A DNA stretch of 64,000 bases from NCBI GenBank assembly GCA_965205945.1, contig CBDBIB010000001.1, positions 480,001 through 544,000 of the forward strand. The letters run 5' to 3'. Below, piece after piece: positions 4,676 to 21,630 of the stretch. How positions within the stretch are numbered: position 1 is the stretch's first letter; each line of letters starts with the position of its first letter. A program made the position numbers and the translations under genes. Source of the DNA: Bdellovibrionales bacterium (GTDB lineage: Bacteria > Bdellovibrionota > Bdellovibrionia > Bdellovibrionales > UBA1609). A model generated the notes under the pieces. That model saw only the letters and a program-made list of their open reading frames with translations. It was not told the origin of the DNA and did no database searches.

Positions 4676-6709
4676 TTAATCCCTAAAAACCGTAATACCA
4701 TGAACTTTCCAACCATCTTCATGCACAGAAGTATCTGAGGCAATTCTAAATCTTAATTTAAAAGATTCAGCTCCAGCAATGGCGTCTGAGATATCAATAA
4801 TTGAAGAAGCTATACCCTCAGTCCAGCCGCTGTATTTAGCAACTTGGATCCAAGTTGTTTCATCTGTAGAAACCTCTACATACCCGTAATCATACTTATT
4901 TTCTAGCTCATATTCATTTTGTAATTTTAAAAAAATCTTATCTCCAAAAGCGACTATAGGCTCCGCTATTGTTAATGAAAAATCTGCATTTTTATCATAA
5001 TTTTTACCTGGAGAATCTGAGAACACAGTTGATCCATTTTCTAATGTCTCTAGCCCCCAAGTTCCCGTAACTATAATTCCGCTTAAAGAGTCAGTACTGT
5101 ATTCATGTAAAACTTCAACTCGAAGAGTTGCAAACTCAATAGACTCAGAAATTTCACTAATGTTTCCAAGATCATCTAATGCTTTTACAGCAACATAGCC
5201 TGTCGAGTTAATACCTAAATCATCTAATATGACTGTTGCTATACCACGTTGAATCGACACATCACTTAAAACTGTTGTTGCTAAAGCCCAATTCTCATCA
5301 GTAATTGGTTTATCTAAAATTCTTATTTCATACTCACTAGCTTTACCCTTAAAACCATCATCCCCGCTTACGTTAAAACCAATTTGAATTGAATCCACTT
5401 GATTTTGAACAACTTCTAATCCATTAACTTTTGCTGGAGCTATTTTATCATCTTGAAGAGATAATAAAGCGTTTGCTCTTTTACCAGAAACTAATTTAGA
5501 AGATAAACTGCTTAGAGCATCGCCTGTATAAATAATTCTCTTTCTAATTCTATCCATAGATTCGTTAGGGTATCTAGCTTTAATAAAAGCTGCTAAGCCT
5601 GCTATATGAGGAGCGGCCATAGAGGTTCCACTCATCATCTGATACCCACCACCTGGTTTAGTGGAATAAACATCTACTCCTGGCGCTGCAATATGCACCT
5701 TCTTTTTGCCATAGTTTGAAAAAATTGCTAGTTCATCTAATGAATTTACTGCTGCAACAGAAATAATATTTTCTAAGTCATGATTTGCTGGAAAAAATGA
5801 GCTTCTATCATTATTTTTTGAAGAGTTTCCAGCTGCAGCAATAAATAAAATTTGATAATCTCTTGCTTCCATGATTGCTGCTTTAATTGTTTCTGAAGGC
5901 CCCCCCCCTCCCCATGAATTATTTGTAATATCAACGCCAATTTTTGTTGAATACTCAATGGCTTCAACAAGTGCTTCTGTTGTTGTTCTGCCTGTATCAC
6001 TAAAAACTTTAAGCCCCACTAATGAAACTTCCCAGTTCACTCCAACAACACCTACACCGTTATTCCCAGTAGCCCCAATAGAACCTGCACAATGAGTTCC
6101 ATGTCCGTCGTTATCCATAGGATCATTATCATCATTTATAAAATCCCAACCCCTATGATCATCAATATATCCATTTTCATCATCATCAATACCATTAGTA
6201 GCTTTTTCATTGCCCTCAGAGTCTAAACCTGTTTCACCAGGATTAGCCCAGTAGTTATCCTTTAAATCAGGATGATTATAATCAACACCTGAATCAATAA
6301 TGCCTACTAAAACTCTTCTTGAGCCTATATTTGTTTCCCAAGCCTCTGGCATAGACATACTTTCCATCCCATATAATTTAAAATATTCAGGATCGTTTGG
6401 AGCAGCTAATAGTTTATATATTGCGTTCTTCTCTACATACTCAACATTAGAGTCTTGCCTTAAATCTTTCATTACTTTTTTAAGATCAACTACACTTGAA
6501 AATTTTAAAAGTTTTGCTCCACTGGCTCTGAATTCTTTTTTTTCTTGAGCACTGTATTTCATTATTGTTGTTTTAAAACTTGAATTATGAAATTTAACAA
6601 TCAACTCATGAGGGACAAAGTCTTGAGTTTCTTGATTTTTTTCCTCTGCGGAATTAACATTAGTCATATTTATAAAAAACATTAAAATAAAAAATAACCC
6701 TCTAAACAT
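4676..6709 (-). CDS. Secreted subtilisin-like S8 serine protease with FN3-like and jelly-roll C-terminal domains
   Basis: Signal peptide and prodomain; catalytic triad IIDSGVD / HGTHCAG / GTSMAAP; oxyanion AAAGN; SGDDGFKGKASEYEIR FN3-like segment. Confidence 0.93.
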   Translation of the reverse strand: MFRGLFFILMFFINMTNVNSAEEKNQETQDFVPHELIVKFHNSSFKTTIMKYSAQEKKEFRASGAKLLKFSSVVDLKKVMKDLRQDSNVEYVEKNAIYKLLAAPNDPEYFKLYGMESMSMPEAWETNIGSRRVLVGIIDSGVDYNHPDLKDNYWANPGETGLDSEGNEKATNGIDDDENGYIDDHRGWDFINDDNDPMDNDGHGTHCAGSIGATGNNGVGVVGVNWEVSLVGLKVFSDTGRTTTEALVEAIEYSTKIGVDITNNSWGGGGPSETIKAAIMEARDYQILFIAAAGNSSKNNDRSSFFPANHDLENIISVAAVNSLDELAIFSNYGKKKVHIAAPGVDVYSTKPGGGYQMMSGTSMAAPHIAGLAAFIKARYPNESMDRIRKRIIYTGDALSSLSSKLVSGKRANALLSLQDDKIAPAKVNGLEVVQNQVDSIQIGFNVSGDDGFKGKASEYEIRILDKPITDENWALATTVLSDVSIQRGIATVILDDLGINSTGYVAVKALDDLGNISEISESIEFATLRVEVLHEYSTDSLSGIIVTGTWGLETLENGSTVFSDSPGKNYDKNADFSLTIAEPIVAFGDKIFLKLQNEYELENKYDYGYVEVSTDETTWIQVAKYSGWTEGIASSIIDISDAIAGAESFKLRFRIASDTSVHEDGWKVHGITVFRD

Positions 6710-11600: not shown

Positions 11601-12405
11601 TACTACTCCCCCCCGCTGCTGATTTTAACATAGCTCGTCTTTGTAACTCTAAGTATGGACCAAAGCCCTCTTTGCCAAACCAATACTTTAAAAGACCTGT
11701 AACACCATTACTTGTAATAGTGGCTCCTGAAAGACCATCAATTTTATAAGCAAATTTTGGATCTGCACTGTCCACTAAACCTTTAACTACTTTTAAGCTT
11801 ACATTAAAATTTTCATCATAAAGTCTTTTTCCTACCCACTTTGCCTTCCAATTTGGATTATCAATTTCAGCACCTAGGCCTGGAGTTTCTCCATGACTAT
11901 AAAACCCAATGCCCTTAACAGTATCAAAATCCACATCTAAAGCTAAAAACCCATACATTGTAGACCATAAACCTTTTCCATGAACGGGAAGAATAAGCAT
12001 TTTTATAACATCATCGGCCATATATTTATAAACAAATGCATATTTAGAAGCCCTCTTAATCCGAGCAGTGTCTTTATTTGAATCAATAAGTTTACCCATA
12101 TCATGAGTCTTACTTGCTTTTTTTTGATCAAAAGTCTTTGGGTCTATATCCACGGCTTTTTCACCCGTTTTAAGATTTATAACTTCAGCTGTAATTGAGG
12201 AGTAAGCAGCTTTAATCTCATCTTTTAAAGCTTTTGAATTTTTTAAAAGCCCTGAGGCTAACAAAAGATTTTTCTTAATATCCAGCGCTTTATTAATATC
12301 TTGCCTATCCTTAAGTAAAGCAACAGATATGGATACAAGTAACGAGCATACAACACATAAAACTACTGCAACAACTAACGTTTTTAAAACACTATCCTTT
12401 TGCAT
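11593..12405 (-). CDS. nqrC: Na+-NQR subunit C
   Basis: [21 protein letters not shown]-binding [10 protein letters not shown]. Confidence 0.98.
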
Positions 12406-13600
12406 ACTTTAACTTTCGTCTTTTAATATTTGAATTCACAACAAAGTAATCAATCAATGGTGCAAATACGTTACCAAATAAAATTGCTAACATTACACCT
12501 TCTGGAAATGCAGGATTTATAACTCTTACTAAAATAACCATAAAGCCAATAAGAACACCATAAAAAAACTGACCTTTAAAAGTCATGGCAGAACTAACAG
12601 GGTCTGTGGCCATAAAAACTGTGCCAAATGCAAAACCGCCCACCACAAGATGCCACAAAGGAGACATAGCAAACATTAAATTAGTACTGCTTCCTATATA
12701 GTTAAATAGTGCTGCAAAAGCTACAGTCGACACCACCATTGAAAAGATTATTCTCCATGAACCAATTCCTGTAAAAATTAAAAGACCTGCACCTAACAAA
12801 CAAGCTAGGGTTGATGTTTCCCCCATTGATCCTGGAATTAAACCTATAAAAGCATCCATCCAAGAATAAGTTATTGAGGCCATCCCGTCTAAAGCTACTT
12901 GGCCTAAGATTGTAGCCCCTGTAAAACCATCTACTGGAGTCCACACCATATTTCCAGAAATTTGAGCCGGATATGCAAAGAATAAAAAAGCTCTTCCAGT
13001 TAACGCTGGGTTTAAGAAGTTCTTCCCTGTTCCACCAAAAATTTCCTTAGCAATGACAACACCAAAGGTGATACCTACAGCAACCTGCCACAAAGGAATT
13101 GAGGCAGGTAAAGTTAAAGGAAAAAGCAAACCTGTTACTAAAAACCCCTCATTAATCTCATGCCCTCTAATAGAGGCAAAGACGCCTTCCCATAAACCAC
13201 CCACTAAATTGGTCACTAAAAATATGGGTATAAAAAATAAAGCCCCTAAAGCAAAGCAAGATAAAAAATTTGATGAATCTAGAACAAAACCCAGAGCATG
13301 AAAGATTTCGCCCCTCACTCCTGCAACTTGATTAAGCCCCATTGATGTTACAGCTAATTGAGCCTGATAACCTGTATTATACATCGCCATGATAATACAA
13401 GGCATAAGAGCTATTGCTACAGTTACCATTGTTCTTTTAAGATCCATGCCATCTCTTACATGAACTCTTCCTGTGGTAGTTTCACCTGGAGTATACAAAA
13501 ACGTATCAATAGCCTCATATAAAGGATAAAAAATCTTTAACTTTCCATCACCTACAAAGTGTTTATGTTGAGAGTCTAAAAAATTACGTAATACTTTCAT
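12392..13600 (-). CDS. nqrB: Na+-NQR subunit B
   Basis: [38 protein letters not shown] site. Confidence 0.98.
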
Positions 13601-13606
13601 TTTTAA

Positions 13607-14950
13607 TTATCCCTCTACCTCTATTATATTTAAATTCTTTCTAAGCATAAGTCCAAAATCTACTTTCCCAGGAGATGCAAATGTAAGAAGAGCCATGTCT
13701 TCTTCTGTAAGTTCTAAGCAGCCTAAATCCTGTGCTTGATTCGTATCATTTGATGCTAAGGCTCTTAAAAGCTGAGTTGGTAAAATATCAAGTGGCATAA
13801 CTTTTTCAAATGCGCCCGTTGGAACCATAGCTCTAACGGAGCCATGAGTAGACGAGCCTAGATTAAAAACTTTTCCTGGAATAAATTTTGATAAAAATGT
13901 ATTTCTAATTGAAAACTTATTAAAACCTGGTGAATGCCAACCTAAAAATTCTCTTTTATCGTCTTCTTTAATTAAGGTAATTTGATTAGAATAAGCCCCT
14001 AAGTAATCAAAAGCACCTTCTGCTTTGTGACCATTAAACACCGAACCTGAAATTGCTCTTAAAGCTCTACCCTCTTTAGCTTCTCCACTTATAAGTTCTG
14101 ATATTTGAGCCCCTTTTCTAACTTTTAAATACCTTGGATTAGAAGCCAAAGGACCACCGATTGTAATCATCTTATCAGTTAAAAGACTACCTGTAAGAAT
14201 AAGTCTACCTACAGCTATGACATCTTGATAACCTATGTGCCAAACAAGTCTAGTTGGGTTTACAGGATTAATAAAATGAATATGAGTTCCTGGGTTTCCA
14301 GCTGGATGAGGCCCGGAAAACTCAGCAATATCTGTACCATACCCTTTAAGATTTGAACCAACAGATTTACAAAAATAAGTTTTATTTTTTGAAAGCTTAG
14401 ATAAAGCCTGAATACCAGCTTTAAATTCATCTTGGAATTGACCAACTACAAATTCTGGTTTTGGAGCTAATGGGTTTGTATCTATTACTGTAATAAAAAG
14501 TGATTCAGGCTTAGCTGCCACATCTGCTACTTTACCAAAGGGCCTTTGAATTAAACCTTTCCACTCACCGGATTCAATTAATAACTTTGTGATCTCTTCA
14601 CTTGTATAGTCTTTTACAGGTTTAGAAATATAAGTTTTAAAAGACACAGCTTCTTCTTGTTTTGAGAGTTGAATTTCTACTGATTGAAACAAGCGCCTAT
14701 CACCACGATTTATAGCCGTAACTTTACCTGCAGCTGGAGATGTAAAAACCAATCCAATATTTTTTTTACATGAAAAAAGAGGCTCGCCGATTCTAACATC
14801 ATCTCCTACCTGAACTTGCATAGTAGGCTTCATACCAATAAAATCAGAACCTATAATTGCAATTTTTTTAAATTCTTTACTTAAATCTAAGCTTTCTTGA
14901 GGTTCACCTGATATAGGCAGTTTTAAACCTTTTTTAATGCAAAATTTCAT
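13607..14950 (-). CDS. nqrA: Na+-NQR subunit A
   Basis: IKKGLKLPISGEP, GPHPAGNPGTHIH, PLDILPTQLLRAL; first gene of the nqr operon. Confidence 0.97.
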   Translation of the reverse strand: MKFCIKKGLKLPISGEPQESLDLSKEFKKIAIIGSDFIGMKPTMQVQVGDDVRIGEPLFSCKKNIGLVFTSPAAGKVTAINRGDRRLFQSVEIQLSKQEEAVSFKTYISKPVKDYTSEEITKLLIESGEWKGLIQRPFGKVADVAAKPESLFITVIDTNPLAPKPEFVVGQFQDEFKAGIQALSKLSKNKTYFCKSVGSNLKGYGTDIAEFSGPHPAGNPGTHIHFINPVNPTRLVWHIGYQDVIAVGRLILTGSLLTDKMITIGGPLASNPRYLKVRKGAQISELISGEAKEGRALRAISGSVFNGHKAEGAFDYLGAYSNQITLIKEDDKREFLGWHSPGFNKFSIRNTFLSKFIPGKVFNLGSSTHGSVRAMVPTGAFEKVMPLDILPTQLLRALASNDTNQAQDLGCLELTEEDMALLTFASPGKVDFGLMLRKNLNIIEVEG

Positions 14951-15333
14951 TAGCCTGCTTCCTAAGAGTTTTAACTAGTTATAAAAAAAATTAGTGGAAT
15001 CAAGGAATATAATCAATAAGAATTCATTTTAGAACCTTATATTGTATTTTTATTGTGCACTTTATTTGCTCACCGTAGTATCTGAGTTTTCTAATAATCC
15101 TAGTTTGAACTTTTTTAAAGGATTTAAGTTTTTAGGATAGGATTTTTTGTAAGAAAGTTTTATCTTAAGCACACAAGGCGTTAGAGTCTAAAAAAACTTT
15201 ATAGCGAATCTACTCTTGGGCACTTATAACATATTGTTTGCACCCCTTAAAACCTTTAATTCCTATTAAAACCTATAATAGCCGCTTGCTACAAGAATTT
15301 TAAAAAGTTTTAAATTCAAGTTAAAACAAAAAA

Positions 15334-15361
15334 TAAACCCTTTTTTAAACAAGAGGGTTTA
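15334..15361 (-). terminator. Rho-independent terminator of the AAA+/CUB gene
   Basis: Minus strand TAAACCCT...AGGGTTTA hairpin followed by a T-tract, ~45 bp after the stop at 15408. Confidence 0.7.
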
Positions 15362-15407
15362 CTTTAAAATTAAACTTTAAAAATATATTTAAGTAAGACT
15401 GTTTTTA

Positions 15408-17654
15408 TTATTTTAAATAAGCCCTAAAAGGAACTTTATCTCTGGGCCCTATTCTTCTTAAAAACTTATTATCATCAGTTAAAAACCCATGCCCATTATT
15501 ATTTCTAATGTCTGCTTCAAACTCTAAAGAAACTTCATCAACATTAATTGTAAACATTAAATTGTCCCCTGGGTTTTTAGTAAAATTAATCTCAGCTTGA
15601 TGATTATTCAAATTACCATACTCTAATTGAAATTCTGCAATTCCACCAATAATAATGTTTTCCATAAGCCTTTCAATGGGACGAGAGCCATAAAGTGGAC
15701 TTTGTCCATTTATAGCTATAAATTCTAAACTCTGAGCATCCATTGTTAGTGTCCAGCCAAAACGTTTTTTTACTTTACCTGCTTTTTTTAAATAAAGGGT
15801 ATTAGACATTTGTCTGTATTGATCTAAAGTAAATGGCCTAGAAATCACCACATCATTAAATCTATTTAAAAAGCTAAGTCTAAAAGTCTGTTGCAGCGCT
15901 TCATTTGCAAGTCTTTCTAGCTCTGGATGATTAGGGTTTTCAAGGATCACTTCATGGCCTGCGTTTGTTGTCATAAATATAAATGCTCCACGGGCAGAAA
16001 GGGGTCTTTGAAATTTATCATAGAACAATCCATCATCCATTAAAAAAAACAACTGATCTAAAATTGAAGGATTTGCTTTATCTATTTCTTCAAAAAGATA
16101 AATTGCAAAAGGATAAAGGGTTAAACTTCTTGCCATGGTTTCTACAAACCGTTCAAAACTTGCATCTGTTTGATACCCTGTCATGTCAAACGTTACAATT
16201 CTCATGTCTAAAGCACTTGCTGTTGATTTTGCCAAATGTGATTTTCCAGTTCCTGTAGGGCCTGCAAGAAGTAAATTTGCAACTGGTTTTTTAGTAGTTC
16301 TTCCTACAACATAACCAATTTTTGCCTCTCTTACCACAGCCTGACGACCTTGATCAGCACCAATGACATCTTCACTCAAATATTGCTCTAAATTTTTAAT
16401 TCTCTTAAATTTTTTATCTACAATCCACTCTGGAACTTGAATGAATGAAAAGACAGCATCTCTAACATTTTCAAAGCTCACCCTGTAAGGCTCAACTCTC
16501 TCTCCCTTAACCTGAGTGATTACAAACCCCTCAAACTGAGTCAAACTGTTACTGTTAAAAACCAACCTTAAGCTATTTGTTTTAAACATTTCAGATTCAA
16601 AGGCACCAAGCTCACCGGAATATCTTGCAAGTTCAACACCACTAACAGCATCATAGACTCTTAAAGTATCCAATACTCTTTCCGTATGAAAAGAATCAAA
16701 AACTATAGCTAGGCTGACCACTTCAGGCCTATTTATTATAAACTCTAAATTTGAATTTGGTTCATACTCATGAGGAGTCTCTACAGCTGACTCAAGAACA
16801 ATATCTGTACGAGTGGTTACGGTCTTAACTTTTCTAAGAAGAGATTTTAAAACATTCATTGTTCTTTCTGGTTCATTAATATTGGGCTGATAATGTTGTA
16901 AAGTATTAATTAAATATTTTCTATTGCTCTTTGACAATAAAACGTTAGGGTAAAGAACCTTTAAATAGGTTTTAACCATTTTTCTAACGTCATCTTCTAT
17001 AAGAGCCTCTAAGTTAATTTTTTCAGCAAAAGAGTTTACAACATAAGAATGCTCACTATTTCGAATACGCTCATATTCATACTTATTAACAAAGGCTACA
17101 GTCTTCATTCTACCTGCTAGTATATTGGCTGAATACTCTGTCTCTATTCCCGATGCATCGTTTGAATGAGAACCTATTCCAATTAAAGACCATAAACTTC
17201 TAAAATACAAAATAGCATCTTTCCCATCAACTGGGTTTAAAATACTCTCTAACCAATACTCATCAACTTCACCAACATACTTATGCCCAGCTTCAATCTT
17301 ATTAATATCCACTTCAATATGCCAATCTTTAACGCAACCTTTAGGCTTTTGCATTTGTGCAAGTCTTGCAAAAACATACCTATAAGCATCACTAGCTTCA
17401 CCTACTAATAAGACCGATCTATTCTGATCATCACTACAAAAAACATCAATCATTCTACTTACAACATCATCATAGATATTTAACTCCCCCATAACTTTAA
17501 TATAATTAGTCCAGGACTTATGTACTGGATACTGATTCGATCCAGGCCCAACTATATAACCAGACTTTAAAAGTTTTTTTAAATCTGGCTCTTCTTGCGC
17601 CACGGCAGAAAATACAAATATAGAACAAAGCAATACTTCCACTATTAATTTCAT
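15408..17654 (-). CDS. Exported ClpA/ClpB-derived AAA+ protein: dead D1, CUB insertion, D2 ATPase
   Basis: Sec signal (AVA|QEE). D1 alignable by eye to ClpB but with degenerate Walker A and B. CUB motif ETPHEY..FDSFHTERVLDTLRVYD..YSG..LRLVFNSN..FEGF. D2 GPTGTGKS, IYLFEEIDKA, MTTNAG, FLNRF, YGSRPIER. Confidence 0.85.
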   Translation of the reverse strand: MKLIVEVLLCSIFVFSAVAQEEPDLKKLLKSGYIVGPGSNQYPVHKSWTNYIKVMGELNIYDDVVSRMIDVFCSDDQNRSVLLVGEASDAYRYVFARLAQMQKPKGCVKDWHIEVDINKIEAGHKYVGEVDEYWLESILNPVDGKDAILYFRSLWSLIGIGSHSNDASGIETEYSANILAGRMKTVAFVNKYEYERIRNSEHSYVVNSFAEKINLEALIEDDVRKMVKTYLKVLYPNVLLSKSNRKYLINTLQHYQPNINEPERTMNVLKSLLRKVKTVTTRTDIVLESAVETPHEYEPNSNLEFIINRPEVVSLAIVFDSFHTERVLDTLRVYDAVSGVELARYSGELGAFESEMFKTNSLRLVFNSNSLTQFEGFVITQVKGERVEPYRVSFENVRDAVFSFIQVPEWIVDKKFKRIKNLEQYLSEDVIGADQGRQAVVREAKIGYVVGRTTKKPVANLLLAGPTGTGKSHLAKSTASALDMRIVTFDMTGYQTDASFERFVETMARSLTLYPFAIYLFEEIDKANPSILDQLFFLMDDGLFYDKFQRPLSARGAFIFMTTNAGHEVILENPNHPELERLANEALQQTFRLSFLNRFNDVVISRPFTLDQYRQMSNTLYLKKAGKVKKRFGWTLTMDAQSLEFIAINGQSPLYGSRPIERLMENIIIGGIAEFQLEYGNLNNHQAEINFTKNPGDNLMFTINVDEVSLEFEADIRNNNGHGFLTDDNKFLRRIGPRDKVPFRAYLK

Positions 17655-17952
17655 CTACGCCCCCTTTTATTTATGAAATAGTTTATACTAAATGCTATCC
17701 CAAACTAATAGCCAAGTAAAGCCTGCAAACCATCATTATTTTAATTAGCTCTAAAAAGGTTAACTTAATTAGCTATCAACGGTATTCTTATATTATAAAG
17801 CTTTTTCTACGCAGTTTTAATAACCATTTTTTATAAAGAGCTATATTTTAAAGAAATCTATAACTTAACAATACATTATCTCTTCATCTAAAGGTTTCAT
17901 TATTTCTACATGTTTATTGATAAGTTTAATGAAATTTTCTCTAAGTACCCTT

Positions 17953-18036: not shown

Positions 18037-21000
18037 TTAACCATATCCACCAGCAGTTGGTGTTTTAATAGTTACAGCTTCACCCGCTTTTAATTTTGCG
18101 TGCGCACACCCAGGTAGCACTTCAATCTTACCGTTAAGCCTACGTATAAAAGCCCGGCCTACTTCACCAAAACCGCCTCCATATAATCCTTCTGGTGGGC
18201 GTTGACGGTGAGATGATAATATTGTCATTTCCATACTTTCTAAAAAACGAATGGTTCTCTCTGTTCCATCACCTGCAGACCACTTTCCTGACCCACCGGA
18301 GCCCTTTCTAATAAAGAAATTCTCTAATAAAACAGGGTACTTAAATTCTAATATTTCTGGATCAGTCATACTAGAATTAGTCATATGAACCTGGACTGCG
18401 TCCGTCCCATTAAACCCCTTCCCTGCAGGTGAGCCAGAGCAAATCGTTTCATAATATTGATAAACCTCATTTCCAAAGGTGAAGTTATTCATAGTTCCTT
18501 GTGAGTTTGCCATAGCCCCGAGGGCACCAAACAGTGTATTTGTAATATGTTGTGATGTTTCAACATTACCTGCCACAACAGCCGCTGGATAACTTGGTTT
18601 TAACATACAGCCCTGAGGTATAATAATGTTAATAGGGCGCAAACACCCTGCATTAATGGGAATACTTCCTTCTACCATCATACGGAATGCATATAAAACT
18701 GCTGCACGTGTTACAGGTTCAGGTGCGTTAAAATTATTCTTTTGCTCCTTAGTTGTACCTGTGAAATCTACAATCGCAGTGCGATTTTCCTTATTTACTA
18801 AAATCTGAACTTTAATAATAGCCCCTTGATCTGTTTTATATGAATAACAACTGTTATGCAGCACGCTGATAACACGACGTACACTTTCTTCAGCGTTATC
18901 TTGAACATACTCCATATAAGATTGAACAACACATAAACCAAATTGATCTATCATTTTGTGCAACTCTCCAATGCCCATTTTATTTGCTGCAACTTGTGCT
19001 TTTAAATCCGCAATGTTTTGCATAGGATTTCGGCATGGGAATGGATGATCTGTTAACAATTTATAAAGCGCATTTTCTTGAAAAACACCTTTACTCACTA
19101 TTCGAAAGTTATCGATTAAAATACCTTCTTCATCTACCGTTGTTGCTAAAGGGGTCATTGACCCTGGAGTTGTTCCTCCTACATCTGCATGGTGCCCACG
19201 TGAAGCTGTATAAAAAAGTATTTCTTTTTTTGTATCATTAAAAACAGGAGTAACAACGGTAATATCCGGCAAATGCGTTCCACCATTATAAGGTGCATTT
19301 AATGCAAAAACATCCCCTGGATAAATGTCACCTTTATTAAGGTTTAAGATGACTTCAACGGATCGGTCCATTGATCCTAAATGAATGGGCATATGCGGAG
19401 CATTGGCTACTAGTGAACCATTAGCAGTAAAAACGGCACAAGAAAAATCTAAACGCTCTTTGATGTTTATAGAATGTGCCGTTTTTTGCAAAACAACACC
19501 CATTTGTTCAGCAATAGACATAAATAAATTATTAAATACTTCTAAAAGAATAGGATCGGCTTTCGTCCCCATAGCGTATTTAGTTTTCTTAGCTTTAATA
19601 CGCTCTAACACAATATCATTTTGTTTAGTCACCGTAGCTTGCCAGCCTGGTTCAATGACAATTGTTTGATGCGGCTCCACAATCAATGCTGGCCCGTTAA
19701 TCTTTAAACCAGATTTAAATGCTTTACGTGTCTTATAAATATTTGCTTTATGCCACTCACCATTAGTGTAAATCAACGTAGTCTCATCGCTATTTAGTTT
19801 ATCCTTAGCATCTAATAGATTCATTGTTTGAATTCCAGCACTGCCTCCAAAACTTTCAATGTGAACAGATTCAACAAAGATTTTTTTATTTTCAAAGGCA
19901 AATCCAAATCGTTTTTTGTGAAGTTTGATAAAATCAGATCTCATTTGGTTAATTCTAGATATACTTATAGATAACGTTGTATCTGCCCCATCATAGCGTA
20001 AGTCTAACCATTTAACAGTTTGTATATCCATAACTCCTTGCTTAATTAAATCTTTCTCATTCTCATCTTTAAAGGCGTCTAGAATAGATTCAATATCAAC
20101 TAAAAGTGCTTGATTTAAAAGTTTAGCAACGGATGCAAAGCGTGATGCGCGGATATCTGCAAGACCCATTCCATAAGCAGATAAAACTCCAGAGTAAGAG
20201 TGTATATAAATAGTTTTTATGGCTAGCTTATCTGCAACTAAGCAAGCGTGTTGACCACCGGCACCACCAAAACATGTTAATGTATAATCAGACACATCGT
20301 AACCACGTTGAACAGATATTTTTTTAATTGCATTGGCCATATTTTCAACGGCAATACTTAAAAAACCTTCAGCCACATGATAGATATTTTTTTCATTACC
20401 GATTTTTTTTACCAATTCTTTAAATTTTTCTTTAACAATATGAGCATCCAAATATTGATCTTGGTTGGGGCCAAAAATCTTTGGAAAATTTTCCGGCTTT
20501 AATTTACCCAGCATAACATTGGCATCTGTAAGTGTTAGAGGACCTCCACGAAGATAACTTGCAGGACCCGGATTTGCACCTGCACTGTCTGGGCCTACTG
20601 AAAACTTTGACCCATCGTAATGTAGAATAGACCCCCCGCCTGCAGCAACCGTATGAATATTCATCATAGGCGCACGTACGCGAACACCTGCAACTTCAGT
20701 TTCAAAAGATCGCTCAAATACTCCACTATAATGAGAAACATCTGTAGATGTGCCCCCCATATCAAAGGCAATAATTTTATTAAACCCTGCTAATTTGCTA
20801 GTTTTTACTGCCCCCACAACACCGCCAGCAGGACCAGACAAAATAGCGTCTTTACCTTTAAAACGATCTGCAGATGTTAACCCCCCGTTTGACATCATGA
20901 ACATAAGTTTTGTTCCAGCACGCTCTAGTCCATCAAGCTCATGAGCAACCTGTGCTACATAACGCGATAAAATAGGAGTAAGATAAGCATCCACAACTGT

Positions 21001-21630
21001 CGTATCACCACGCCCAACAAACTTCATTAAAGGAGAGACTTTATGACTAACAGATATTTGTGTGAAACCGATTTCTACGGCAATTTTTTCTGCTAACAAT
21101 TCGTGATCTGGATAGGCATAAGCATGCATAAAAACAATTGCAATAGATCTATGACCTGCTTGATATAATCCTAATAATGCAGTTTCAACTTCACTTATGT
21201 CTAAAGGTTTTTCAATGGTTCCTTCTGCGCGCATGCGCTCATTTATTTCAATAACATTAGAATATAGTTGTTCTAGTTTTTTTATTTCTTTTGCAAATAT
21301 CTCTTTACGAGCCTGATAACCAATTAAAAGTGCATCACGAAAACCTTGAGTTATTAACAAGGCTGTTTTTTCACCTTTACGCTCTAACAGTGCATTAGTG
21401 GCAACAGTTGTACCCATTTTTATGGAGGCAATTTTTGACGCAGGAATAAGCTTGTTTTTTGCAATACCCATAAGATCTCGAATACCCTGGAGTACTGCGT
21501 CGTTATAGGCCTCCTGATTTTCAGATAAAAGCTTATGGATAAGAATATTACCTTTAGGCGTCTTTGCCACAATATCGGTAAAAGTGCCGCCCCGATCGAT
21601 CCAAAAGTCCCAATTCTTCATTTTTATCAC
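18037..21630 (-). CDS. 5-oxoprolinase (fused hydantoinase A/B, OplA-type)
   Basis: [76 protein letters not shown]. Confidence 0.95.

Follow-up and report, generated by a model that had tools for sequence, protein, structure and literature searches.

An apparently exported Clp/Hsp100-type protein with a degenerate D1 module, a D2 module without a pore loop and an inserted CUB domain in Bdellovibrionota

Analysis of a 64,000-nucleotide stretch from a Bdellovibrionales bacterium (assembly GCA_965205945.1, contig CBDBIB010000001.1, positions 480,001 to 544,000; the “window” in the following) revealed a gene for a two-module AAA+ protein, referred to here as the exported Clp. The protein belongs to a constrained family and is not a decaying clpB. 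Alignments showed that the family derives from the two-ring (class I) Clp/Hsp100 ATPases, that the first module (D1) can no longer bind ATP yet keeps its aromatic pore loop, and that the second module (D2) keeps every residue needed for ATP binding and hydrolysis between subunits. The protein was apparently exported by Sec, and a CUB domain was located between the two modules. A fold best known from animal extracellular proteins was thereby placed inside a bacterial ATPase, and a division of labour appeared within a two-ring AAA+ protein, D1 having a pore loop without a motor and D2 a motor without a pore loop. The original prediction, a note made from the DNA letters alone, had not recognised this architecture as described. 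Literature searches, whose coverage left subscription journals outside, likewise found no description of an exported Clp with a CUB domain, and “periplasmic”, “secreted”, “extracytoplasmic” or “exported” AAA+, searched as phrases, gave none.

Fold and motifs of the two AAA+ modules

The full-length AlphaFold2 (AF2) model was confident, with a predicted local distance difference test (pLDDT) value of 88.7 and a predicted template modelling score (pTM) of 0.72. The top Foldseek matches of the model were the two-ring ClpC/ClpA/ClpB chains (E ~1e-34, over 670-800 columns), and T. thermophilus ClpB (1qvr) was aligned collinearly over residues 62-668 (E = 1e-35). The two tandem AAA+ modules and the D2 small subdomain were collinear with those of the solved class-I Clp/Hsp100 members, and both Pfam AAA_2 and Pfam ClpB_D2-small were matched above their cut-offs.

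Motifs were compared by alignment to the ClpB and ClpA of the same genome and to 1qvr. In D1, the Walker A motif GEPGVGKT was replaced by GEASDAYR, the Walker B motif FIDELH by YFRSLW, the sensor-1 motif GATT by AFVN and the arginine fingers ERRF by VNSF, whereas the pore loop was retained as AGHKYVGE in place of AGAKYKGE. The residue at pore-loop position 126 was aromatic in 47 of 50 relatives (Tyr in 39, Phe in 6 and Trp in 2). A D1 collinear with ClpB, with lost catalytic motifs and a kept pore tyrosine, had been read from the sequence in the original prediction, and each of these motifs was reproduced by the alignments.

The set of motifs of an active ring (Walker A lysine, Walker B acidic pair, sensor-1, arginine finger and sensor-2) was complete in D2. 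It consisted of the Walker A motif GPTGTGKS (465-472), the Walker B motif FEEIDKA (521-527), the sensor-1 motif TTN (562-564, within MTTN), the arginine finger R598 in FLNRF, and sensor-2, of which G656, R658 and P659 were invariant in the 50-member alignment. The residues K471, E522, E523, N564, R598 and R658 were present in all 50 full-length members. The pore loop of D2 was deleted. A pore-loop regular expression matched only 60 of the 143 canonical Clp proteins examined for comparison and was uninformative, so the spacing of the motifs was counted instead. The distance from the P-loop to Walker B was 49 residues in 109/109 family proteins and 52-66 residues in the canonical Clp proteins, of which 136 contained both motifs. 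Walker B opened with EE in 108 of the 109 family proteins, compared with DE in all 136 canonical proteins with the motif, and a single P-loop was found in 109/109 family proteins, compared with two in 97 of the 143 canonical matches. No IGF/IGL-type ClpP loop, searched as [ILVM]G[FLM] between sensor-1 and the arginine finger, was found in any of 50 relatives. The kept D2 motifs, the missing pore loop and the missing IGF loop, all of which had been predicted, were borne out by the alignment gap, the constant spacing and this search.

The exported Clp shared with ClpB/Hsp104 (TIGR03346; 1qvr, 4ciu) the collinear two-AAA+ layout and the lack of a ClpP-docking loop. It differed from ClpB in that a signal peptide took the place of the N-domain and a CUB β-sandwich that of the coiled-coil M-domain, D1 was dead, Walker B read EE and not DE, and the D2 pore loop was missing (the D1 loop being kept); its family also formed a separate clade. 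The score against TIGR03346 was 119.4 bits at a cut-off of 1232, and only D2 (residues 392-684) was matched. The class-I two-ring fold was also like that of ClpA/ClpC (TIGR02639), ClpA was the best NCBIfam model (124.4 bits at a cut-off of 993, matching the C-terminal half only), and the direct D1-D2 join of the CUB-less relatives described below was as in ClpA. Unlike ClpA/ClpC, the protein was without an N-domain or IG(F/L) loop, D1 was inactive and D2 had no pore loop. When D2 was searched alone, ClpB D2 was nearest (3e-33), followed by Hsp104, ClpC, ClpA (~1e-21) and human CLPB. The descent from ClpB proposed in the original prediction was therefore only weakly resolved, ClpA being slightly ahead of ClpB by NCBIfam score (124 vs 119 bits) and ClpB being closest to D2 alone.

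Two eukaryotic systems were compared with the exported Clp. Torsins (PF06309; 5j1s, 6oif) are likewise signal-sequence-bearing, Clp-D2-like ATPases that act outside the cytosol, are devoid of aromatic pore loops and rely on degenerate AAA+ proteins as scaffolds (PMC5425593; also PMC7175109). The degenerate scaffold of torsins is LAP1/LULL1 in trans, whereas D1 would take this place in cis in the exported Clp. The exported Clp also differed from torsins in having its own invariant arginine finger R598, two modules and a CUB domain, and in being bacterial. Pfam Torsin was matched with 18.1 bits (0.003) at a cut-off of 27, and ancestry from torsins was rejected because torsinA matched D2 at E = 0.0037 compared with 3e-33 for ClpB. 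The torsin precedent named in the original prediction was therefore an analogy only, with no special kinship. Plasmodium HSP101 (ClpB2, PTEX; 6e10) is a class-I Clp/Hsp100 protein that matched D2 at 3.9e-12, and PMC7355975 describes it as a ClpB-type motor acting beyond the plasma membrane of the producer, in the vacuole around an intracellular organism. According to that source, HSP101 keeps two active modules, the M-domain, the N-domain and tyrosine pore loops and threads its cargo, whereas the exported Clp retains only the D1 pore loop.

Export signal, CUB domain and family history

The signal peptide of the window protein contained K2, the h-region VLLCSIFVF and A-V-A preceding Q20, which fits the pattern of n-, h- and c-regions with small residues at -3 and -1. 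According to a heuristic of hydropathy and charge, a charged n-region followed by a hydrophobic h-region was present in 61 of 65 full-length relatives, and the four exceptions looked 5'-truncated or had no Lys/Arg. The N-termini of the relatives were composed of a short charged stretch, a hydrophobic run, small residues and then the mature motif PDLxxLxxSGxIxGPG. The Sec signal ahead of QEE, in place of the Clp N-domain, was thus recovered as predicted, and homologues kept the pattern, the loss of which had been named as a reason to give up the prediction. In the mature part, C73 and C107 were each present in 50/50 relatives and were the only conserved cysteine columns of the alignment, and exactly two cysteines were found beyond residue 35 in 43 of the 50. 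These two residues probably form a structural disulfide, which is typical of exported proteins. The CUB domain is likewise an extracellular module.

The insert between D1 and D2 was identified as a CUB domain by sequence and by structure. In the whole protein, Pfam CUB scored 20.9 bits over residues 290-380, just below the cut-off of 21.4, and when residues 276-392 were excised, the score of PF00431 was 25.4 bits, above this cut-off. The excised domains of 19 of 20 relatives were matched by Pfam CUB (best 2.5e-10). A profile of 20 domains searched against the PDB sequences matched cubilin (1.5e-25), PCPE-1 (1.6e-13) and neuropilin-1 (1.5e-11), as well as enteropeptidase and C1r; some WD-repeat designs also scored with this profile via a short repeat-like stretch. 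The model of the domain had a pLDDT of 90.7, and its first 44 Foldseek PDB rows were all CUB structures (TMq 0.51-0.70). The identity of the insert at the M-domain point, as predicted, and its folding as CUB were both supported by these results. The insert had the same fold and belonged to the same sequence family as the known CUB domains (cubilin, C1r/C1s/MASP, PCPE, neuropilin and enteropeptidase), but it was without the CUB disulfides and was embedded in a bacterial AAA+ protein. The positions that we take to be the Ca2+ site of CUB domains are Y297, E325, D329 and 369. Among the 50 relatives, Y297 was conserved in 46, E325 in 37 and D329 in 47, and position 369 was Asp in 35 and Asn in 9.

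The family was clearly separated from the canonical Clp proteins. A word-indexed search yielded ~98 clusters scoring from 1686 down to 365 bits, followed by a drop to 128 bits (canonical ClpA), and an exhaustive search of the 50%-identity representatives yielded 38 proteins at E <= 1e-30. The same architecture and motif losses were shared by ~110 protein clusters. D2 was the most conserved part, with 77 of its 213 columns conserved at a level of at least 0.9, compared with 35 of 214 in D1 and 7 of 117 in the CUB domain. The ratio of nonsynonymous to synonymous substitution rates (dN/dS) was determined from two unsaturated pairs, dS being saturated in the other 4 of 6 pairs. The overall values were 0.064 and 0.087, and the values by domain were 0.027/0.050 for D1, 0.087/0.158 for CUB and 0.029/0.069 for D2. 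Missing selective constraint on the D2 motifs, which had been considered as a possible objection to the original prediction, was not observed, the motifs being invariant and the dN/dS of D2 being among these low values. The possibility that the gene is a functionless copy of clpB in decay might be raised by the loss of the D1 catalytic motifs and of the D2 pore loop and by scores far below the ClpA/ClpB cut-offs. It has next to no probability, since the 748-residue frame was intact, the same losses were fixed in ~110 clusters, dN/dS was 0.03-0.16 in every domain and the structure model was confident; a decaying clpB was ruled out by the invariant D2 motifs together with dN/dS.

Relatives were found in metagenome-assembled genomes (MAGs) labelled Bacteriovoracaceae, Halobacteriovorax, Bdellovibrio sp., Pseudobdellovibrio and Oligoflexales. 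One locus labelled Sulfitobacter sp. (L024) showed a gene order nearly identical to that of two Halobacteriovorax loci (L013, L023), and its label may be wrong. In a phylum-wide sample of Bdellovibrionota, the gene was present in 10/401 genomes and 7/203 genera, with the genome of the window counted. The family also contained CUB-less relatives of 588-841 residues, in which D1 was joined directly to D2. These shorter proteins likewise had a signal peptide, a dead D1 that keeps the pore loop, the deletion in D2 and the FEEIDKA motif. In a quick IQ-TREE analysis of 50 rows, with 8 canonical Clp proteins used for rooting, the exported family formed one clade (support 100, starred) and the CUB-less lineages branched first. 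A derived group (33 rows; support 92, unstarred) held the CUB-bearing proteins together with three nested CUB-less rows. Because the CUB-less relatives are basal, the CUB domain was most likely gained between D1 and D2 after export and the loss of D1 function were established, in an ancestor without an M-domain, rather than exchanged for an M-domain; the order of the CUB gain is an inference, since the root lies on a long branch. The original prediction of a CUB domain replacing the M-domain was accordingly right about the position, which is the M-domain site, but not about the history suggested by the tree.

Possible source of ATP, proposed mechanism and alternatives

Clustering of the open reading frames (ORFs) around 24 loci of relatives revealed one conserved neighbour. 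In a hidden Markov model (HMM) search of six-frame translations of the 22 loci with an intact flank, a gene for a hydrophobic protein of ~212 residues was located directly beside the ATPase gene, on the same strand, in 18 loci (for example L021:7326-7961 (+), with equivalents in 17 others), upstream of it except in L030, where it was downstream. It was absent from L009, L010, L017 and L018. Many invariant charged residues were found within the hydrophobic segments of this protein, the invariant residues including W, N, E, R, Q, D and K; its topology was sketched by hydropathy only. The partner family comprised 33 clusters among 5.8 billion proteins, several of which were on contigs equal in size to those bearing the ATPase, and among the fetched loci the partner gene always adjoined a CUB-bearing ATPase gene. 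The 212-residue protein, judged by this co-occurrence, looks like a dedicated partner. It matched no Pfam or NCBIfam family, its best Atlas score was 0.85, which is a lead only, and hhalign gave a probability of 0.2% for a relation to the TLC-like carrier described next. The earlier statement that the gene stands alone with its own terminator was correct for the window, where a hairpin and T-run follow the gene, but did not apply to the family, in which the membrane protein was adjacent in 18/22 loci.

A nucleotide carrier was found beside the CUB-less form. In a Limisphaerales MAG (L033), a 617-residue CUB-less ATPase was followed after 34 bp by a 446-residue polytopic protein (L033:9846-11183 (+)), which was placed by the Atlas at 0.99 with the “TLC ATP/ADP transporter” and “Npt1/Npt2 nucleotide transporter” clusters. 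The only Pfam match of this protein itself was MFS_1, below the cut-off. Pfam TLC was matched by 6 of 10 aligned carrier members (best 1.2e-9). Close homologues of the carrier contain PF03219 and are named “AAA family ATP:ADP antiporter” by JGI. In the positive control of the genome search, PF03219 gave a match right beside the ATPase gene in the genome of L033 (G418; 23.4 bits at a cut-off of 21). In the related loci on marine metagenome contigs (L075-L128), the carrier gene was located 30-37 bp downstream of the ATPase gene, on the same strand. This applied to 37/37 loci in which the ATPase 3' end was followed by 300 bp or more of sequence; 57 loci were considered in all, and 20 of them were without that flank. 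Within this two-gene unit the carrier was 50-99% identical among loci and the ATPase 79-98%, the carrier diverging faster. The marine CUB-less form was present in 1/401 genomes sampled from its phylum (Verrucomicrobiota-type). Exchange of ATP for ADP by an inner-membrane antiporter would meet precisely the need of an ATPase in the periplasm. The original prediction had suggested that the protein is perhaps active only in an ATP-containing prey or host compartment, whereas this pairing points to a supply of nucleotide through the inner membrane of the cell itself. In P. aeruginosa, a periplasmic domain that senses extracellular ATP has been reported (PMC12625894).

Taken from the motifs, the signal peptide and the gene order, a Sec-exported, ring-forming machine that is driven by D2 and acts outside the cytoplasm has, in our estimate, about an even chance of being the right description. 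Export would proceed through Sec, with cleavage by signal peptidase I, and a single disulfide between C73 and C107 would lock the protein. The protein would then assemble into a ring, as suggested by the arginine finger, which works in trans on the neighbouring subunit. D2 would be the sole motor, outside the cytoplasm, and the nucleotide-free D1 would serve as a scaffold, with its aromatic loops and the CUB domains, the latter probably in a Ca2+-dependent manner, holding the target. Such a ring would function as a nucleotide-driven clamp or remodeller and not by ClpB-style threading through both rings. ATP would have to reach the protein. In the marine sister lineage it would probably be supplied by the TLC-type ATP:ADP antiporter encoded next door, and in most relatives from Bdellovibrionota the 212-residue membrane protein would probably act as an anchor or conduit. 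Neither partner was found in the genome of the window, where the source may be prey-derived nucleotide or another carrier. With the conserved export signal, the intact and constrained ATPase site and, in one lineage, the operon linkage to an ATP:ADP antiporter-type carrier, the family offers a concrete, testable case for ATP-dependent work outside the bacterial cytoplasm. The secreted ring ATPase or scaffold with CUB domains that had been proposed was supported in part, namely as a Clp/Hsp100 derivative that is under constraint, is apparently exported and contains a true CUB domain.

A more far-reaching proposal is possible but clearly tentative, namely that some Gram-negative bacteria purposely feed a periplasmic AAA+ machine by combining an exported Clp motor with an ATP/ADP exchanger of the inner membrane (TLC-type, and possibly the 212-residue protein). 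The dead D1 would grip, the pore-less D2 would drive, and in predators the CUB domain would aim the machine at a component of the envelope or of the prey. If this were true, the periplasm of these bacteria would be a counterpart of the lumen of the endoplasmic reticulum with its torsins and ATP importer.

Several points weigh against a D2-driven machine outside the cytoplasm. To our knowledge, the periplasm is generally held to lack ATP, and for this reason envelope machines are powered from the cytoplasm or by the proton gradient. In the protein itself, the first Walker B residue is Glu and not the canonical Asp, a glutamate (E6) is located inside the h-region of the signal peptide, the third putative Ca2+ ligand of the window CUB domain is Asn and not Asp, and signal peptides were judged by our own heuristic and not by SignalP. 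In the genome of the window, which is 97% complete, the 212-residue partner was not found (E <= 10) and the search with PF03219 (TLC) gave no match. The gene was found in none of 40 other genomes of the same genus, family and order (E <= 1e-50), which implies that it is dispensable for that life style. The TLC link amounts to about one evolutionary event, because it was observed in one shallow lineage (79-98% identity; 1/401 genomes).

The exported Clp could also be a secreted weapon or tool. It would then be released from the predator, either across the outer membrane or where predator and prey touch, and act in the periplasm or cytoplasm of the prey or in the bdelloplast, with D2 running on prey ATP and the CUB domain binding a prey molecule. 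The host phylum Bdellovibrionota, the patchy, accessory-like distribution, the partner-less clade of the window (with L009), in which the gene stands alone, and the secreted S8 subtilases adjoining the gene in two partner-less loci are all in line with this possibility. However, a polytopic membrane protein was adjacent in 18/22 loci, which implies action at the cell's own membrane, the CUB-less relatives of the marine Verrucomicrobiota lineage were paired with an inner-membrane nucleotide carrier, and neither a signal for secretion across the outer membrane nor a gene of a secretion system was observed in the vicinity. A secreted tool of this kind is therefore considered unlikely. Quite unlikely, too, is an exported scaffold that works without nucleotide and, as a ring or protomer, only displays its CUB domains as an adhesin or receptor, the P-loop being kept for folding or for another phosphate ligand. 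As D1 showed, an AAA+ fold can persist in this lineage without nucleotide, the Walker B Asp was changed to Glu in 108 of 109 proteins, and the PF03219 search revealed no nucleotide carrier in the genome of the window. A scaffold would not explain why the residues that serve hydrolysis or trans-activation only (E523, N564, R598 and R658) were invariant, why D2 was the most conserved part (dN/dS 0.029-0.069) or why the sister lineage was operon-linked to an ATP:ADP antiporter-type carrier. Even as a scaffold only, the protein would clearly illustrate how a motor of the cytoplasm can be adapted as a building block for export.

The ATP problem would be removed altogether if the protein were cytoplasmic. 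In that case the N-terminal stretch would either remain as a membrane anchor that is not cleaved or be left untranslated, and the ATPase would be located at the cytoplasmic side of the inner membrane, where the partner membrane protein could dock it from inside. The heuristic nature of the signal-peptide calls leaves room for this explanation. It is nevertheless very improbable, because the positive charge, the short h-region of ~9-15 residues and the small residues (AVA) indicate the topology of an export signal and not of an N-out anchor, a ribosome-binding site (RBS) was located ahead of the first ATG, and a hydrophobic N-terminus was present in 61/65 relatives. The two invariant cysteines and the CUB domain, a type of extracellular module, also disagree with a cytoplasmic location, and an adjacent ATP:ADP antiporter would make no sense as a supplier for a cytoplasmic ATPase.

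Gene structure and surroundings in the window

The frame of 748 codons was intact in the window, and the features of the gene are listed in Table 1. The RBS was located 5 nt ahead of the ATG. The promoter-like site had 10/12 consensus matches, and the count of such sites in the region was not above that of shuffled sequences, so that it is weak, pattern-level evidence only. The pattern scan for terminators listed none on the minus strand and missed the hairpin at 15330-15365 (-), which was revealed by folding instead, with -12.9 kcal/mol and z = -3.04, none of 200 shuffles being as stable. With its own promoter-like site and a 3' hairpin with a T-run, the gene looks monocistronic. At the C-terminus, strands were formed by residues 688-713 in the model and the pLDDT was below 50 from residue 723, the conservation being 0.44 in the strands and 0.23 in the tail.

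Table 1. Coordinates of the exported-Clp gene and its features in the window
Feature	Position	Strand	Basis
Whole gene, exported Clp/Hsp100-like protein	15408..17654	minus	ORF list; 748 residues and stop, ATG start
Promoter-like TTAAAA-17-TATAAT (17820-17792) and RBS AAGGGGG (17666-17660)	17660..17820	minus	Consensus scan and sequence
Putative signal peptide, residues 1-19, MKLIVEVLLCSIFVFSAVA, predicted cut before QEE	17598..17654	minus	Read from sequence
Conserved mature N-terminal segment, residues 20-61, motif PDLxxLxxSGxIxGPG...W, replacing the Clp N-domain	17472..17597	minus	Consensus of 62+9 and of 50 relatives
Span from Cys73 (17436-17438) to Cys107 (17334-17336)	17334..17438	minus	Alignment of 50 relatives
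D1, residues 62-275, AAA+ fold without Walker A, Walker B, sensor-1 and Arg fingers	16830..17471	minus	Alignments; motif table of 50 relatives
D1 pore-loop-1 equivalent, residues 122-134, AGHKYVGEVDEYW	17253..17291	minus	Aligned to AGAKYKGEFEERL of own ClpB
CUB domain, residues 276-392, at the ClpB M-domain site	16479..16829	minus	Pfam, profile search, model and Foldseek
D2 large subdomain, residues 393-605	15840..16478	minus	Pfam AAA_2 (456-601, 1.4e-18); invariant columns; motif table
Deleted D2 pore-loop site, between T506 and M507	16134..16139	minus	12-residue gap opposite IGSPPGYVGYKEGG of own ClpB
D2 small subdomain, residues 606-685, sensor-2 GSRP (656-659)	15600..15839	minus	Pfam ClpB_D2-small (630-677, 1e-4)
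C-terminal β-strands (686-720), poorly conserved low-confidence tail (721-748), stop	15408..15599	minus	Model and conservation
Intrinsic-terminator-like hairpin (15330-15365) and T-run (15318-15329)	15318..15365	minus	RNA folding

A canonical ClpB of 847 residues and a ClpA of 725 residues were also encoded in the same genome, so the exported-Clp gene is an extra paralogue. A third Clp-like stretch (L004, L005, L007) was observed in this genome outside the window at C3:402332-403661 (-). It matched ClpB residues 332-497, 556-721 and 740-853 in separate frames, contained one internal TAA and may be a broken or split Clp gene.

The window protein was clustered in the tree with that of L009, which is also partner-less. 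The ORFs flanking the gene in the window, at 12392-14950 (-) and 18037-21630 (-), encoded proteins of 402, 447 and 1197 residues that resembled, by eye, Na+-NQR subunits and a fused hydantoinase/oxoprolinase. They were treated as unrelated, because they were not conserved beside the ATPase gene in relatives. In one Bacteriovoracaceae MAG, an S8 subtilase gene adjoined the ATPase gene in two partner-less loci (L010:6530-7693 (+) and L017:10154-11434 (+)), and a homologous S8 subtilase ORF, assigned by BLAST clustering only, was located in the window at ~5001-6709 (-), ~9 kb away from the exported-Clp gene.

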